From Holophagales bacterium (GTDB lineage: Bacteria > Acidobacteriota > Thermoanaerobaculia > Multivoradales > Multivoraceae): DNA of 64,000 nt. Where the stretch lies: the NCBI GenBank assembly GCA_009845425.1, contig VXZQ01000017.1:273463-337462 (forward strand). Direction: 5' to 3'. The translations under genes were made by a program, and so were the position numbers. The notes under the pieces are model-generated. The model was not told the origin of the DNA. It searched no databases and saw only the letters and a list, made by a program, of their open reading frames with translations. Positions within the stretch are counted from its first letter, which is position 1. Each line of letters opens with the position of its first letter. Below are positions 8,392 through 13,859 of the stretch, piece by piece.

Positions 8392-11304
8392 CTAGAACCG
8401 CTGGCCGATCCAGAACGTCGTGCGGCTGTCGCCCGACTCCTTGAGATCCCACTGGGTCGCGAAGTCCCAGTGCAGATCGAGGCCGAGCATCCGCACCGTG
8501 ATGCCGAAGCCGTAGGCGGCGATCGCGTCGTCCAGCCGGCTGTTCTCGGAGTCCCAGACGTTGAAGTCCTGGATACCGTCGAAGTAGGCGCCGGCGATAT
8601 CGACGAAGAAGCGCCCCTGGATCCCCTGGAAGGTCCAGATCGGCGTCACGAAGAAGTCGATCAGGGGGAAGCGCAGCTCGAGGTTCGTGAAGAAACCGTG
8701 GTCGCCGACCATGTCGCGAAAGTCGACGCCGCGCACCGTGTCGAGCCCGCCGAAGTACACCGGGCTGGGGAAGTTCCCTTGCCTCACGCTGCCGAAGAGC
8801 CGGGTCGCGAAGACACTGCGCCGGGTGAGCGGGAAGTACTTGCGCGCGTCGAGCTGGAACGTCTGCGTGAGTGCCCCGGAAGTCTCGAGATCGGGAGCGT
8901 ACTCCGCGGACAGGCGGTAGCGGTGCCCGCTCGAGGGACCGGCTGGTCCGAACACCGTCGTGTCGCCCACCAGGGCGGCCTGGATCACCGGGTAGTCATC
9001 CTCTCGCGGAGTGATGGTCGGGATCGGCCGGCCGAAGTCGTCCAGCAGCAGGTTGTAGTCGCTGTCCCGGGCATACTGCTGGAAGTCCAGCTTGCGGCGC
9101 ATGTAGCCGGCGCCCAACTCGAACCGACGGTAGAAGCTCATCGGATAGGAGATCGAGAAGATGGCGCCGGTCTGCTGGAAGAACGACCGGCCCCGCTCGT
9201 AGTACCCATACCTGTAGTTGGCGCCGATGTAGAAGGCCCGGTCGTCGAACAGCGACACCTGCCACTGCAGCCGCCTCGAGAGGTTCAGGTAGGTCACGTT
9301 GAACTGGGAGAAACTCTCGATCGAAGCGAATGTCGTGAACAGCCGCCTGTCACCCAGGAAGTCCGAAAACTGCAGGTAGACCTGGCCCAGGAAGGTCTGG
9401 TTGTCGTCAACGCCGACCGCGGTCTGGGCATCCTCCAGGAACAGTCGCCAACCCCGCTTGTCCTCCTTGTTCGACTCGTCGATCGACACCTGGATGTCCG
9501 GCTCGAAGAGGTCGATCGCCGGGATCGGCTCGGAGGGTTCGCCCAGGTCCACGATCTGGACTTCCCCGATCGGTTCGTCGACGTCCGTCTCGTAGAGGTC
9601 GAACCGGCCCTGCCAGAAACCGGTGTACACCAGCCGGTCGTCACTCCCGGCCCGGCCCAGAACGGTCGGCTGGAAGCAGCCGGTGATCGCGTTCGTGTAC
9701 TGGCGAAGCTCACCTGTCTCGATGTTCAGCCCGAAGATGTTCTCGGCGCCCGTGCGGTCCGACGTGAAGTACACCGTCCGGTCGTCGCTCGAGAACACCG
9801 GATCCGTGTTGTGGTGCTCGTCGCTGCCCAGGCGCACGCGCTCCATCGTCTCCAGGTTCAGACGGAACAGTTGGGCCATCTCACCCGGAATCGAGGAGAA
9901 GACGAGCCAGTTGCCGTCGTGAGAGTAAGACGGAGAACCGTCGAAGACCGCGTCGTTGGTCAGGTTCCGGATCTCCAGCGTTCCCAGGTCGAGCTGGAAG
10001 ATGTCGTACTGCCCGTTCTGGTTGCCGCCGAACGCGATGCTCCCGCCGTCCGGACTCCAGGCTGGCGCCGTTTGCTGCTCGATCTCCATGTCGATGACGC
10101 GGCGCACGCCCCCACCCAGGACATTGACGATGGCGAGTGAGTAGCCTGCCTCCTTACGCACGAAGGCCGCCAGCGAGTTGCCGTCGGGCGAGAACGCCAG
10201 GTCGCTGCCGTGCTTGCGGCCCAGGGTCAGCATCTGGGCGACGTAGTGGCGGAAGTCGGCCGTGTAGCCCCGCGTCAGGTTGCGGACCGGCTCGCGCTCC
10301 TGAGTGTCGAAGAGCACGATGTCGACGTCGCCCTGGAAGGTCGAGAACGCCGCCACCAGGTCACCGGAAGGAGAGGCCACCGGTGACGTCTCCTGGCTGC
10401 CCTGGGGGCGGGTGCGGAACGGCCGCCCGAAGTCGCTGGGTTCGCCGGTCGCCACCAGCTCGGGCAGGTACCGGTTGCGAAGCCAGCGACGGAACTCGAG
10501 GTCGAAGTCCTCCGGGTCCATGCGGAAGGCCCGTTCGATCGCCCGGCCCACCCGCGAACCGATCGTGTTCCTGAACTCGAACAGGAAGTCGATCACCCCG
10601 TCGGCCCCCCAGCGCTCCTCCATGAAGTCGAAGGCGGCGTGGCCGTAGCGGTAGGCGAAGAAGCCGCCCGCCTGGCCCGAGGTAATCGGCGGCAGGCGGT
10701 CGTTGACGACCGCATCCCGCAGGTACATCCGGTCGGAAGCGCTCTCATCCTCCGCGAAGTAGCTCGCCATGCCCTCCATCAGCCATTGCGGCGGGCTGTT
10801 CGTCATCGCGCGCCCGAGGCTGCCGCCGAAGAGGATGTGGTACTGGAAGATGTGAGTCAGCTCGTGGAGGATGAGCTCGTAGAGTTCGATGTCCGGCAGG
10901 TCGATGGGCAGAACCATCCGGAACCGCGCCGAGGTTGCGAAGGCCGCGACCCCCTCCGGGATGAAGTTGACCATCACGTTGTTCTGGAGGAAGTCGGAGT
11001 GCGTGTTGTAGATGATCAGCGGCGTCGGTTCCTGGATCTGGTAGTCCAGGTCGAGCGACAACTGGTCGTACGCGCTCTCCGCGAGTGACGCCACCTTCTG
11101 TAGCTGCGGCTCACTCTCGGAGTAGTAGTAGATGTCGAAGTGAGTCGAGTGGTAGATGCGCCAGTCGAAGTCCTCGTAGCGGATCTTGTTCTTGCCGAAG
11201 CCCTGCGCCTCGAGACCGACGGCCGCGCAGACCAGGAGCGCGCAGGCGAGGGCGGTGACGCGGATGGCCGGCATGCCAGCCGGCCGGAGTGGTGCTGAAC
11301 TCAC
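8392..11304 (-). CDS. secreted multidomain envelope protein: N-terminal HExxH zincin-like domain, PD40/TolB-type beta-propeller repeats, C-terminal predicted outer-membrane beta-barrel (ends ...FWIGQRF)
   Basis: GTG start at 11304, preceded by AAGGAGGAG SD that overlaps the upstream stop. It has a signal peptide. LHELTHIFQYH motif. Multiple AFSPDG/WSPDG/YSHDG PD40 repeats. The C-terminal 300 aa are rich in aromatic/alternating residues and end in Phe. Confidence 0.8.
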   Translation of the reverse strand: MSSAPLRPAGMPAIRVTALACALLVCAAVGLEAQGFGKNKIRYEDFDWRIYHSTHFDIYYYSESEPQLQKVASLAESAYDQLSLDLDYQIQEPTPLIIYNTHSDFLQNNVMVNFIPEGVAAFATSARFRMVLPIDLPDIELYELILHELTHIFQYHILFGGSLGRAMTNSPPQWLMEGMASYFAEDESASDRMYLRDAVVNDRLPPITSGQAGGFFAYRYGHAAFDFMEERWGADGVIDFLFEFRNTIGSRVGRAIERAFRMDPEDFDLEFRRWLRNRYLPELVATGEPSDFGRPFRTRPQGSQETSPVASPSGDLVAAFSTFQGDVDIVLFDTQEREPVRNLTRGYTADFRHYVAQMLTLGRKHGSDLAFSPDGNSLAAFVRKEAGYSLAIVNVLGGGVRRVIDMEIEQQTAPAWSPDGGSIAFGGNQNGQYDIFQLDLGTLEIRNLTNDAVFDGSPSYSHDGNWLVFSSIPGEMAQLFRLNLETMERVRLGSDEHHNTDPVFSSDDRTVYFTSDRTGAENIFGLNIETGELRQYTNAITGCFQPTVLGRAGSDDRLVYTGFWQGRFDLYETDVDEPIGEVQIVDLGEPSEPIPAIDLFEPDIQVSIDESNKEDKRGWRLFLEDAQTAVGVDDNQTFLGQVYLQFSDFLGDRRLFTTFASIESFSQFNVTYLNLSRRLQWQVSLFDDRAFYIGANYRYGYYERGRSFFQQTGAIFSISYPMSFYRRFELGAGYMRRKLDFQQYARDSDYNLLLDDFGRPIPTITPREDDYPVIQAALVGDTTVFGPAGPSSGHRYRLSAEYAPDLETSGALTQTFQLDARKYFPLTRRSVFATRLFGSVRQGNFPSPVYFGGLDTVRGVDFRDMVGDHGFFTNLELRFPLIDFFVTPIWTFQGIQGRFFVDIAGAYFDGIQDFNVWDSENSRLDDAIAAYGFGITVRMLGLDLHWDFATQWDLKESGDSRTTFWIGQRF

Positions 11305-11313
11305 TGCTCCTCC

Positions 11314-12042
11314 TTAGGGCGTGAAGATCACGCGCGAGACTTCAATGTCCTTCTGCGTGAACACGCCGAGAATGCGGTCCTCCAGCGCGTACAGGTTCTC
11401 GAACATCCCCTGCAGCGGGTCCGCCTGCTCGCCCTCGAAGCTCTTGAAGTCCTTGAAGTTGTCGTTGTAGATCAGTTCGCCGGTCGAACCGTCGAAAACC
11501 ATGACCACGATGTCGTACTCGAAGCCTGTCTGCTCGACGAGTACCTGCCGGTACATGGTGCGGCCATCGAACGGCGAGATGTACTCCTCCGTGCGATAGC
11601 CGGACCGGTCCTGGATATCGAAGTCCAGGGTGCCGGCGAGGATGAGGTCCGACTGCGTGCTCTCGCCGAGATTGCGCCAGAAGTCCTCGTCCCTGGCCAG
11701 CATCTCGAGGTCGTACGTCGGGTAGTCGATCCGCCCCGCCTCGACGATCCGCAGGTCCGTCTCGCGACGGAGCACCTTGTTCAGGTAGCGCTCGAACTCA
11801 CCCTGGACGTCGATGTCGGATCCTTCGATCCGGCCCTCGCCTTCCTGGCTGACAACCAGAAAGGGTGCCGGCAGCAGCGTGTCGCGGCCGGTCAGGTCGA
11901 TCCGCGCCCGCATCGGCAGTTTCAGCCTCACTTCGACAGTCCCTTCCGCACTCGCCGGAGTCGCTGTCAGCGGCACCAGCAAGCCGACCAGGAGCGCAGC
12001 CGACGCCGCGATTGCCGATCCTCTAATGGCAGCTTGCGTCAC
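11314..12042 (-). CDS. secreted hypothetical protein (signal peptide), co-operonic with the large envelope protein
   Basis: GTG start at 12042 with GGAGGTG SD. N-terminal AIAASAALLVGLLVPLTATPASA signal. No recognisable family. Confidence 0.65.
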   Translation of the reverse strand: MTQAAIRGSAIAASAALLVGLLVPLTATPASAEGTVEVRLKLPMRARIDLTGRDTLLPAPFLVVSQEGEGRIEGSDIDVQGEFERYLNKVLRRETDLRIVEAGRIDYPTYDLEMLARDEDFWRNLGESTQSDLILAGTLDFDIQDRSGYRTEEYISPFDGRTMYRQVLVEQTGFEYDIVVMVFDGSTGELIYNDNFKDFKSFEGEQADPLQGMFENLYALEDRILGVFTQKDIEVSRVIFTP

Positions 12043-12114: not shown

Positions 12115-12624
12115 TCACGGCGCATCGGCAAGCGGTCCGCTCGCACCGCCTCCACCGCTCTCGGTGGAGGCGGGCTGGACGGCTTCCGCCGCCACTGGCG
12201 ACCCCTCTTCGTCGTCCTCCCGGTCACCCTTGAAGTTCTGGTAGTACTCGACGAAGCGCGAGTAGTTCCGCCGGACATCCCGCTCGCGAGGCGCCAGCCG
12301 CAGCGCCTGCCGGTAGTAGCTCAGGGCTTCCTCGAACAGGCCCAGCGCTTCATGCGCGACCGCGATGTTGCTCAGGATCGCCGGGTGTTCCGGCTCGATC
12401 TTGCGAGCCTGTTCGAACCGGAAAAGGGCCTCGCTCCAGAGGCCCCGGTTGGCCATGTCGACGCCGAACTGCCACTGCTGCTTGGCCTCGGGGGCCACCT
12501 TGCGCTTCTGCGCTTCGGCGGTGCCGGAAATCGTCGCCAGGACCAGCACTCCCGCGATCAGCGCCAGAACGCGCGGCCGGCGGTAAGCAGTGCGCGTCAT
12601 CGAGCCAGTATAGATCACGGACAT
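12115..12624 (-). CDS. secreted TPR-repeat protein
   Basis: Signal peptide RVLALIAGVLVLATISGTAEA. TPR-like WSEALFRFEQARKIEPEHP...ALGLFEEALSYYRQALRLAP. Start at 12624 (MSVIY) or 12600 (MTRTAY). Confidence 0.7.
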   Translation of the reverse strand: MSVIYTGSMTRTAYRRPRVLALIAGVLVLATISGTAEAQKRKVAPEAKQQWQFGVDMANRGLWSEALFRFEQARKIEPEHPAILSNIAVAHEALGLFEEALSYYRQALRLAPRERDVRRNYSRFVEYYQNFKGDREDDEEGSPVAAEAVQPASTESGGGGASGPLADAP

Positions 12625-12689: not shown

Positions 12690-13859
12690 ATGGCAGAAAA
12701 ACCGGTCCCGAACGGGAACACTCCCAGAGACGCGGACGATGTCCGGAAAACTCTTGTCGCACTGAATCTGGTGCACGGAGACCGCGGTCTCATCTGCGCG
12801 CTCGCCCAACGCCTCCGCACCGCCGGCGAACTCCGCAGCGACCGCTTCGCCGAGGAAGCGGCCAGCAGCCTCGAAGCGCCATTGGACAGGGTTCGGACCA
12901 TCCTGTTCGCCGCGCGCGGCCGCCTCGACGACGCCCGCGCGGAGATGGCGCGGGCAAGCGAGGACGGCGTCGACATCGTCACCCTGTTCGATCCAGAGTA
13001 CCCACCGGCGCTCGCCGACCTGGGACTGCAGGCGCCTCCCGTCCTCTACGTCCGGGGCCGCTTGAGCGTGGCGCCCGGCATCTCGATCGTCGGTTCGCGC
13101 AAGGCGGACGCGTACGGTCTCGAGGTCGCGGCCTGGTTCGCGCGCCGCCTGGCCGCGGCCGGCCTGGTCATCATCTCCGGATTCGCCCGCGGCATCGACC
13201 AGGCGGCCCACCGCAGCGCCCTGGCGGCCCGCGCCGGCACCGGGAGCACCGCCGCCGTGCTCGGTTGCGGCATCGACGTCGACTACCCCCGCAACAGCCG
13301 CCGGACCGCGGCCGAGATCGCACGGCACGGCTGTCTCATCACCGAGTTTCCTCTCGGCCGTCAGCCCCGTGCCCACCACTTTCCGATCCGGAATCGCCTC
13401 ATCGCCGCCCTCGGGTTCGCTTCGCTTGTAGTCCGCGCCGCCCGGCGCTCGGGCTCCCTGATCACGGCGCGCCTGGCCCTCGACCTCGGGCGCGACGTCT
13501 ACGCGGTTCCGGGTTCCGTCCTCTCCCAGGAGTCCGCGGGCGCCCACCTGCTGCTGCGAGACGGAGCGATCCCCGCCCTCGATCCCGATGCCATGCTCGA
13601 GATCCTGCCCACGTCGATCCTCGCCCAACTCGAACGCCCTCAGCGAGACACGGCCGAACCGACTCGATCCACCTCCTCCGGCGTGTCCGACGTCGACGAC
13701 CTCCTGGTCGCCCTCAGGGAAGGCGCTCGAACGCCGGAAGAACTCGCATCCCGACTCCAACGACCAGTGCCCGGCGTCCTCGCCACCCTCGCCCGGCTGG
13801 AAGTCGACGGACTCGTGCGCCGCTACGAAGGAGCGAACTACGCCCTGATGGCACGCTAG
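12690..13859 (+). CDS. dprA: DNA-processing protein DprA (Smf)
   Basis: Rossmann-like DprA core (VGSRKADAYG...ISGFARGIDQAAHR...VLGCGIDVDYPR) plus a C-terminal winged-helix region. Confidence 0.9.
   Translation: MAEKPVPNGNTPRDADDVRKTLVALNLVHGDRGLICALAQRLRTAGELRSDRFAEEAASSLEAPLDRVRTILFAARGRLDDARAEMARASEDGVDIVTLFDPEYPPALADLGLQAPPVLYVRGRLSVAPGISIVGSRKADAYGLEVAAWFARRLAAAGLVIISGFARGIDQAAHRSALAARAGTGSTAAVLGCGIDVDYPRNSRRTAAEIARHGCLITEFPLGRQPRAHHFPIRNRLIAALGFASLVVRAARRSGSLITARLALDLGRDVYAVPGSVLSQESAGAHLLLRDGAIPALDPDAMLEILPTSILAQLERPQRDTAEPTRSTSSGVSDVDDLLVALREGARTPEELASRLQRPVPGVLATLARLEVDGLVRRYEGANYALMAR

Follow-up and report, generated by a model that had tools for sequence, protein, structure and literature searches.

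The Omp85/TpsB superfamily was divided into ten subfamilies by Heinz & Lithgow 2014 (Front Microbiol 5:370, PMC4104836). In their 'WD40-like' Omp85 group, a TolB-like propeller replaces the POTRA domains, and the arrangement was likened to a BamA-BamB fusion (PMC4104836). Table S3 of that study lists approximately 100 WD40-like members from Bacteroidetes, delta-Proteobacteria, Chlorobi, Gemmatimonas, Vibrio and others, and assigns to each member one BamA/TamA template for the barrel, one from TolB and a 'best aminopeptidase hit' (templates: BamA, 4k3b; TolB, 2w8b; ColH/ColT, 4ar1/4ar9; tricorn factor F3, 1z5h; aminopeptidase A (APA), 4kxd; ERAP1, 3qnf). The main text covers the propeller only; the peptidase, the conservation of its catalytic residues and an operon with a tetratricopeptide repeat (TPR) protein or other partners are not mentioned (PMC4104836). 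The subfamily was later described as having 'not been well characterized' and as an 'intriguing' target (Hanson et al. 2024, PMC11116518). Here we describe a 970-aa WD40-like Omp85 protein, the Omp85-peptidase, encoded in a stretch of 64,000 nt of a Holophagales bacterium (contig VXZQ01000017.1, positions 273,463 to 337,462; this whole stretch is referred to as the window). Its zinc-peptidase-like domain retains invariant catalytic residues, and its gene belongs to a conserved three-gene module.

In the open reading frame (ORF) listing of the window, the gene is a 970-aa ORF on the minus strand with a GTG start (8392..11304); an alternative ATG start is found at residue 11. A full-length AlphaFold2 (AF2) model was built from an alignment of 64 sequences (mean predicted local distance difference test score, pLDDT, 80.5; predicted template modelling score, pTM, 0.74). 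The model has a helical alpha/beta domain at residues ~45-290, six four-stranded blades at ~300-575, a coil linker and sixteen long strands at 621-966. Conservation was read from a deep alignment of 63 representatives of 50%-identity clusters, extending down to 25% identity to the query, in which only sixteen columns are invariant. Five parts were confirmed: a signal peptide, a gluzincin domain of approximately 260 aa, a six-bladed PD40/TolB-type propeller, a 45-residue linker and a 16-stranded Omp85 barrel. The features of the protein are as follows.

11206..11304, minus strand: signal peptide, residues 1-33, with a positive n-region, a hydrophobic core and ...CAAVGLEA before QG (LEA-Q site), as read from the sequence.
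10420..11205, minus strand: gluzincin (clan MA) metallopeptidase-like domain, residues 34-295 (AF2 model of the N-terminal domain, Foldseek, sub-threshold Pfam matches).
10852..10866, minus strand: HELTH zinc-binding and catalytic motif, residues 147-151, with H147, E148 and H151 (invariant in the 64- and 63-sequence alignments).
10774..10776, minus strand: E177, putative third zinc ligand, in W174-x-x-E177-G178 (invariant; aligned with a ColG glutamate).
9580..10407, minus strand: six-bladed PD40/TolB-type beta-propeller, residues ~300-575 (Pfam, NCBIfam, PDB, Foldseek, AF2).
9445..9579, minus strand: linker, residues 576-620, mostly coil in the AF2 model, poorly conserved and gapped in the deep alignment.
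8395..9444, minus strand: 16-stranded Omp85-type outer-membrane beta-barrel, residues 621-970, with the beta-signal ...FWIGQRF (AF2, Foldseek, NCBIfam).
8719..8739, minus strand: loop-6 T-V-R-G-V-D-F, residues 856-862, the Omp85 VRG(F/Y) hallmark (deep alignment).
8590..8607, minus strand: F-V-D-I-A-G, residues 900-905, the Omp85 (F/G)xDxG motif (deep alignment).

The fusion of a zincin, a propeller and an outer-membrane barrel in one protein, proposed in an initial annotation of the window, was borne out by the domain searches and by the AF2 and Foldseek results, and the motifs named there were found at residues 146-156 (LHELTHIFQYH), 371 (AFSPDG), 416 (WSPDGGSIAF), 460 (YSHDGNWLVF), 504 (FSSDDRTVYF) and the C-terminus (...TTFWIGQRF). 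A chance ORF or motif was ruled out by thousands of homologues and three independent domain signals. The tri-domain architecture is not new: because Table S3 of PMC4104836 records TolB, aminopeptidase/collagenase and BamA templates, it was already catalogued in 2014 and is uncharacterised rather than undescribed. The same templates were recovered independently here (4ar9, 4ar1, F3 1z1w, APA 4kx7, 3qnf), with no difference in architecture. The earlier statement that the architecture is 'not among well-characterised families' is literally true, but it describes a subfamily already on record. By its architecture and the shared PDB templates, the 970-aa protein is a member of the POTRA-less WD40-like Omp85 subfamily: it has the Omp85 barrel and the PD40/TolB-like propeller, it has no POTRA, and it carries the N-terminal aminopeptidase/collagenase-like domain recorded in Table S3.

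Matches of the N-terminal domain to Pfam peptidase families (residues 78-276) fell below the curated thresholds (Peptidase_M9, 1.5e-4, 21.6 bits vs. a cut-off of 26, covering part of the profile only; Peptidase_MA_2, 3.5e-4), and the fold was assigned from the structure model instead. A profile-to-PDB sequence search found ColG at E 0.05. A separate AF2 model of the domain (pLDDT 77.9) matched in Foldseek the peptidase domains of ColT, ColH and ColG (4ar9, 7zoc, 7z5u, 4ar1; E 7e-6 to 1e-4, TM 0.55-0.62), several M1 aminopeptidases (tricorn factor F3, IRAP, aminopeptidase A, ERAP1 and LTA4 hydrolase) and the M30 peptidase lugdulysin. The thermolysin-like catalytic fold was thus recovered, with M9, M1 and M30 catalytic domains matched at TMq 0.5-0.62 and E down to 7e-6, and the HExxH of gluzincin type sits in a modelled zincin fold, as had been claimed.

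A candidate for the third zinc ligand, which the initial annotation had left to be located, was found 26 residues past H151. In the profile-to-PDB alignment, HELTH...QWLMEGMASY is aligned with HEYTH...TWFDEGTAEF of ColG, and E177 is placed at the third ligand position because it is aligned with the ligand glutamate of ColG. Eight residues of the peptidase domain are invariant in the deep alignment (H147, E148, H151, E177, G178, R129, D197 and Y218). The zinc ligands and the catalytic glutamate are the residues required for catalysis in gluzincins. As no catalytic residue changes even at 25% identity, the peptidase is predicted from its sequence to be probably active.

The GxMEN exopeptidase motif of M1 is absent here and present in one of the 63 family sequences, and its absence makes an M9/MA_2-type endopeptidase more likely than an M1 aminopeptidase. 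Membership in M1 was rejected, as the protein has neither this motif nor, in the AF2 model, the beta-sandwich domain that precedes the catalytic domain in M1. Membership in the M9 collagenases was also rejected (Peptidase_M9 below the cut-off, no activator domain). The protein shares the gluzincin fold and the HExxH...(W/F)xxEG zinc site with the clostridial M9 collagenases and Peptidase_MA_2, whereas its identity to the collagenases is approximately 16% and it lacks their activator, PKD and collagen-binding domains.

A conserved segment, FxQ(T/N)N....IPEGVGGFxE, was observed just upstream of the HExxH helix (residues 105-124, window 10933-10992, minus strand). Residues 110-118 were modelled at pLDDT < 50 despite the high conservation of the surrounding segment. 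The segment may act as an edge strand or gate that is flexible and binds substrate, and E117 (kept in 51 of 63 sequences) could bind substrate termini.

The middle part of the protein matched PD40 in Pfam (E 6.4e-18) and the TolB propeller in NCBIfam (E 2.4e-34); the latter match reached 119 bits, far under the cut-off of 343 bits, and aligned only the propeller part. A PDB sequence search returned TolB chains only (residues ~370-540, E 1e-20), and TolB was matched by the full-length model in Foldseek at E 1e-11. Six groups of 3-4 strands at residues ~300-575 in the AF2 model refine the 'at least 4-5 PD40/TolB-type blades' counted initially to six. The six-bladed PD40 propeller and the best PDB sequence and fold matches are shared with TolB, whereas the 970-aa polypeptide has no TolB N-terminal domain and no tol-pal context and scores under the family cut-off; identity with the TolB of the Tol-Pal system was rejected. 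Tricorn, DPP-IV and prolyl oligopeptidase also carry a PD40-type propeller beside a peptidase but are serine peptidases that are soluble or inner-membrane, and precomputed Pfam matches to Tricorn_N, Tricorn_2nd and DPPIV_N were found on relatives. By analogy with these enzymes and with the binding of Pal by TolB, the propeller may select or dock substrates.

Barrel matches in Foldseek included BamA (7nrf, TM 0.67, target-normalised; 6qgw, 0.65) and Sam50. NCBIfam Omp85_fam was matched at residues 751-939 (E 3e-8), and the NCBIfam BamA barrel model only faintly (16.9 bits vs. a cut-off of 297). In loop 6 (L6), R858 is invariant (63 of 63) and G859 is kept in 55 of 63 sequences (family consensus TLRGY); in the second motif, F900 is found in 59, D902 in 61 and a glycine at position 904 in 55 of the 63 sequences, this protein having A904-G905. 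The motif NxExRFP is nearly invariant, and the C-terminal residue is aromatic (F/W/Y) in 63 of 63 sequences. The loop-6 and FxDxG motifs are hallmarks of functional Omp85 barrels. On the strand count of the model, these two motifs and the C-terminal aromatic residue, the C-terminal part is a genuine Omp85 superfamily barrel. The initial annotation had placed an outer-membrane barrel here; sixteen strands were modelled rather than a soluble domain, but the barrel measures approximately 350 aa (residues 621-970), not approximately 300. As stated there, POTRA domains are missing: no match at E <= 0.1 was found in Pfam or NCBIfam, and the 45-residue linker is too short for one.

The 16-stranded barrel, the L6 VRG and FxDxG motifs and the aromatic C-terminus are shared with BamA and TamA, which differ from the 970-aa protein in their POTRA domains; BamA/TamA sensu stricto was rejected on the missing POTRA and on the BamA model score. 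The conservation of the two barrel motifs is nonetheless one reason to consider the suggestion of Heinz & Lithgow that such proteins are outer-membrane protein assembly factors resembling a BamA-BamB fusion. The propeller would then scaffold partners, the TPR protein encoded in the same module would be BamD-like, the barrel would insert substrates, and the zincin would be mainly a binding or chaperone module. The propeller and the TPR partner are reminiscent of BamB and BamD, and relatives carry the NCBI label 'BamA/TamA family'. However, POTRA, the substrate-handling element of BamA and TamA, is missing, the propeller is of the PD40/TolB and not of the BamB type, and the TPR protein has generic TPR matches only (NCBIfam). 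In addition, the strict invariance of E148 and the three zinc ligands over deep divergence argues for catalysis and not mere binding. We consider an assembly factor unlikely.

The minus-strand gene order in the window is TPR protein, 242-aa partner, Omp85-peptidase, a metallo-beta-lactamase (MBL)-fold hydrolase, purS, purQ and purL; dprA is divergent from the module, with topA beyond dprA. The genes next to the Omp85-peptidase gene are as follows.

12115..12624, minus strand: first gene of the module, encoding a small exported TPR protein (Pfam TPR_2, 4.4e-10).
11314..12042, minus strand: partner gene, separated by 9 nt from the Omp85 gene downstream; its product is an exported protein of 242 aa whose family has no name.
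7506..8384, minus strand: MBL-fold hydrolase gene, with a TTG start 7 nt past the Omp85 stop (Pfam Lactamase_B_2, 2e-20).

The coupling to an upstream exported gene noted initially is seen in the sequence: the TAA of the partner gene lies inside TAAGGAGGAGCA-GTG, with a 9-nt gap and a Shine-Dalgarno sequence overlapping the stop codon. All three window proteins (TPR, partner and Omp85) have signal peptides. The partner gene was found directly upstream of the Omp85 gene in 62 of 62 Acidobacteriota loci (64-99% identity), and the TPR gene upstream in all 61 of these loci that reach that far. This synteny alone proves little because the loci also keep their housekeeping flanks. The decisive test used eight representatives at 28-31% identity from unrelated contexts. 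The same TPR-partner-Omp85 order was found in five of the eight (L063, L065, L067, L068 and L069), with completely different flanks; in these distant triads the TPR protein has 107-132 aa, the middle protein has 219-243 aa and no Pfam domains, and the gaps measure -8 to 18 nt. When the window partner was compared by hhalign with the five distant middle proteins, they proved to be homologous (probability 96.9%, E 1.4e-10); with three distant positional equivalents only, the probability was 29%. A conserved three-gene module was thus shown, in the order TPR protein, partner of approximately 220-243 aa, Omp85-peptidase.

All five distant partners have a lipobox cysteine, whereas the Acidobacteriota partner has an ordinary cleavable signal peptide. 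Within Acidobacteriota, identities of 64-78% for the partner and 51-68% for the Omp85 protein show the partner to be the better conserved of the two. The family of the partner counts more than 2149 proteins, each of them named 'hypothetical', and no Pfam domain was found in partner homologues.

The partner bears a weak resemblance to FlgT_M, sub-threshold in 15 of 19 members (best E 2.7e-5). FlgT_M was reportedly likened to the N-domain of TolB by Terashima et al. in 2013, which our literature search did not confirm. Together with the TolB matches of the middle domain, the best it has in both sequence and fold, this weak resemblance allows a Tol-Pal-like tether to be proposed, in which the propeller would bind a Pal/OmpA-like peptidoglycan-associated protein, and would form, with the TolB-N-like partner encoded upstream, a 'split TolB' anchored in the outer membrane, and the peptidase would trim the tethering protein. 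The TolB score of 119 against 343 bits, the absence of tolQ, tolR, tolA and pal nearby in the window, the occurrence of PD40 propellers in many unrelated peptidases, and a FlgT_M match that is sub-threshold and has no PDB support all argue against such a tether, which we regard as very unlikely.

The reading we prefer, with a probability of roughly 0.5, is a propeller-gated endopeptidase complex that is anchored in the outer membrane, faces the periplasm and serves in the processing or quality control of envelope proteins. After Sec export and removal of the signal peptide, the 16-stranded Omp85 barrel would insert into the outer membrane and keep the gluzincin endopeptidase and the TolB-type propeller on the periplasmic side. 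The propeller would be a docking or gating module choosing what reaches the zinc site. The Omp85-peptidase would act with the small TPR protein and the partner of approximately 240 aa (weakly FlgT_M-like; a lipoprotein in other phyla), and the three proteins would make up a single proteolytic complex, anchored in the outer membrane, by which envelope proteins or peptides are processed or degraded. We infer the periplasmic orientation, the enzymatic activity, the association of the three proteins and the class of substrate.

The established Omp85 topology places the two ends of the 16-stranded barrel on the periplasmic side. As exported proteins or lipoproteins, the partners would have to be met in the periplasm. 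Experiments located the patatin domain at the N-terminus of PlpD, an Omp85 protein of Pseudomonas aeruginosa, in the periplasm (PMC11116518). On these three grounds, the N-terminal domains of the Omp85-peptidase are expected to be periplasmic. In PlpD, as proposed here, the Omp85 barrel is an anchor for an N-terminal hydrolase domain; PlpD differs in having one POTRA and a patatin lipase, in place of a zinc peptidase and a propeller without POTRA.

The original proposal for PlpD (type Vd) was the opposite orientation, and it is also the model for a rival reading of the location of the peptidase. Here, by surface display or autotransport, the barrel would export its own peptidase-propeller passenger to the cell surface, where it would degrade extracellular proteins as nutrients for the bacterium, a sponge-associated heterotroph. 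Heinz & Lithgow raised this for non-POTRA Omp85 proteins with enzyme domains (PMC4104836), the nearest peptidase folds are those of secreted collagenases, and the relatives of the window organism are metagenome-assembled genomes (MAGs) of sponge symbionts. Yet the PlpD passenger is now shown to be periplasmic (PMC11116518), a folded peptidase and propeller of approximately 540 residues would have to pass through an Omp85 barrel that is closed, the partners conserved beside it are either periplasmic or lipoproteins, and no POTRA or TpsB-type features were found in Pfam or NCBIfam. Surface display is considered improbable, and a periplasm-facing complex is preferred.

Several points weigh against the periplasmic endopeptidase complex. 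The 970-aa protein scores under the curated Pfam thresholds for peptidases. Three of the eight distant representatives (L066, L070 and L071) have neither the TPR nor the partner gene, so the partners are not universal. The resemblance of the partner to FlgT_M is sub-threshold, and no PDB sequence match was found for the partner. In the literature search, no experimental study on any WD40-like Omp85 member was found, and the orientation, activity and substrate of the Omp85-peptidase are what we infer.

The three exceptions hint that some sub-clades have other partners or none; these may be paralogous classes, since as many as 4-5 copies in one genome are listed by Heinz & Lithgow for Rhodothermus and Salinibacter. 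In one of them, P0255, a 130-aa protein without Pfam domains ends 1 nt before the Omp85 start (L070 1423-1815), and no TPR or partner genes are present. No paralogue of the Omp85-peptidase gene was found in the 64-kb window.

A more specific version of the proteolytic complex would be a self-contained machine, formed by the three-gene module, in which the lateral seam of the barrel captures beta-strand substrates (such as stalled or misassembled outer-membrane proteins) and feeds them to the fused protease; we consider this about as improbable as surface display. BepA, a zinc peptidase that acts at BAM (reviewed in PMC13067283), likewise brings together a zincin, TPR and Omp85 in outer-membrane protein quality control, and the likeness is a functional analogy only. 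BepA is a soluble M48 peptidase with its own TPR domain, whereas the peptidase described here is part of the barrel protein and the TPR protein is separate. If the self-contained machine were real, it would be a fused counterpart of BepA/BAM quality control, independent of BAM and widespread in diderm phyla lacking BepA-type control.

More than 4799 full-length homologues were found in the 90%-clustered collection, and the 50%-clustered library contains 1140 clusters at E <= 1e-30. The nearest relatives (89-99% identical) come from sponge- or marine-associated Acidobacteriota MAGs (Thermoanaerobaculia, 'Holophagales', Candidatus Multivorans). Identity at the locus was approximately 99% to MAGs of Candidatus Multivorans, 'Holophagales' SB066x and CO36388 bins (L001, L002, L032, L040 and L054), which makes the genome of a sponge-symbiont Thermoanaerobaculia the most likely source of the window. 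The family profile reaches beyond Acidobacteriota, for example to Ca. Glassbacteria and an unclassified 'bacterium' with the same Pfam set. Homologues are named 'BamA/TamA family outer membrane protein', 'PD40 domain-containing protein', 'peptidase MA family metallohydrolase', 'Tol biopolymer transport system component' or 'hypothetical' in the databases.

To our knowledge, all studied Omp85 proteins insert or translocate proteins. PlpD shows that the Omp85 scaffold can also simply carry an enzyme (PMC11116518). With at least 1140 clusters in many phyla, the WD40-like subfamily is large and is a real open question in Omp85 biology. To the earlier catalogue, this analysis adds evidence for catalytic competence and a conserved three-gene module; the strict conservation of the peptidase site and the two co-encoded partners turn a catalogue entry into a testable system.

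The window locus is a typical vertically inherited, syntenic housekeeping-type envelope gene of sponge-associated Acidobacteriota. GC content is 0.65 over window positions 8001-12000, which hold the TPR, partner and Omp85 genes, vs. 0.69-0.70 in the flanks. The amino-acid composition of envelope proteins may account for the dip, and synteny across the class argues against recent horizontal transfer of the module. Because the region is high-GC, long spurious antisense ORFs occur. One of these, a plus-strand ORF of 633 aa that overlaps the Omp85-peptidase gene (8239..10140), was rejected as such an artefact; homologues and domains were found in the minus-strand frame only.

The N-terminus of the Omp85-peptidase, MSSAPLRPAGMPAIRVTALACALLVCAAVGLEA followed by QG, was read as a Sec signal peptide, and a signal-peptide-like segment followed by a conserved FGKNK motif was found in 63 of 63 aligned family members. 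This near-invariant motif, FGKNK(V/I)xY..F.W, lies right behind the cleavage site (residues 34-40, window 11185-11205, minus strand), with G37, N39 and K40 kept in at least 90% of the 63 deep relatives. In the AF2 model the region is disordered (pLDDT < 50, residues 20-42). That an unstructured tail at the N-terminus is so well conserved points to a docking peptide, a plug or a pro-segment.

The start sites of two neighbouring genes are probably not those listed. The TPR ORF is listed to 12762, and translation probably begins at Met47 or Met55, immediately ahead of the signal peptide RPRVLALIAGVLVLATISGTAEA; the first ~46-54 codons lie before this peptide and would extend over the start of the divergent dprA gene at 12690. 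The mechanical start of the 787-aa PurL ORF (4241-6604, minus strand) is too far upstream, as the PurL profile matches from residue 60.

The MBL gene is possibly co-transcribed with the Omp85 gene, and its membership in the module is doubtful. Among the Acidobacteriota loci it is directly adjacent in close relatives only and lies 1-2 kb away or is absent elsewhere. The hydrolase was rejected as a fourth module member as unproven, the window MBL and those near the distant triads being of different subfamilies. A Lactamase_B_3 protein of approximately 205 aa was found within 1-2 genes of the triad in L065 (8929-9552) and L068 (6306-6917). These two MBLs are 50% identical to each other (E 1e-70) and have only the HxHxDH motif in common with the window MBL. 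The recurrence of MBL genes near the module could be a coincidence or a loose functional link.

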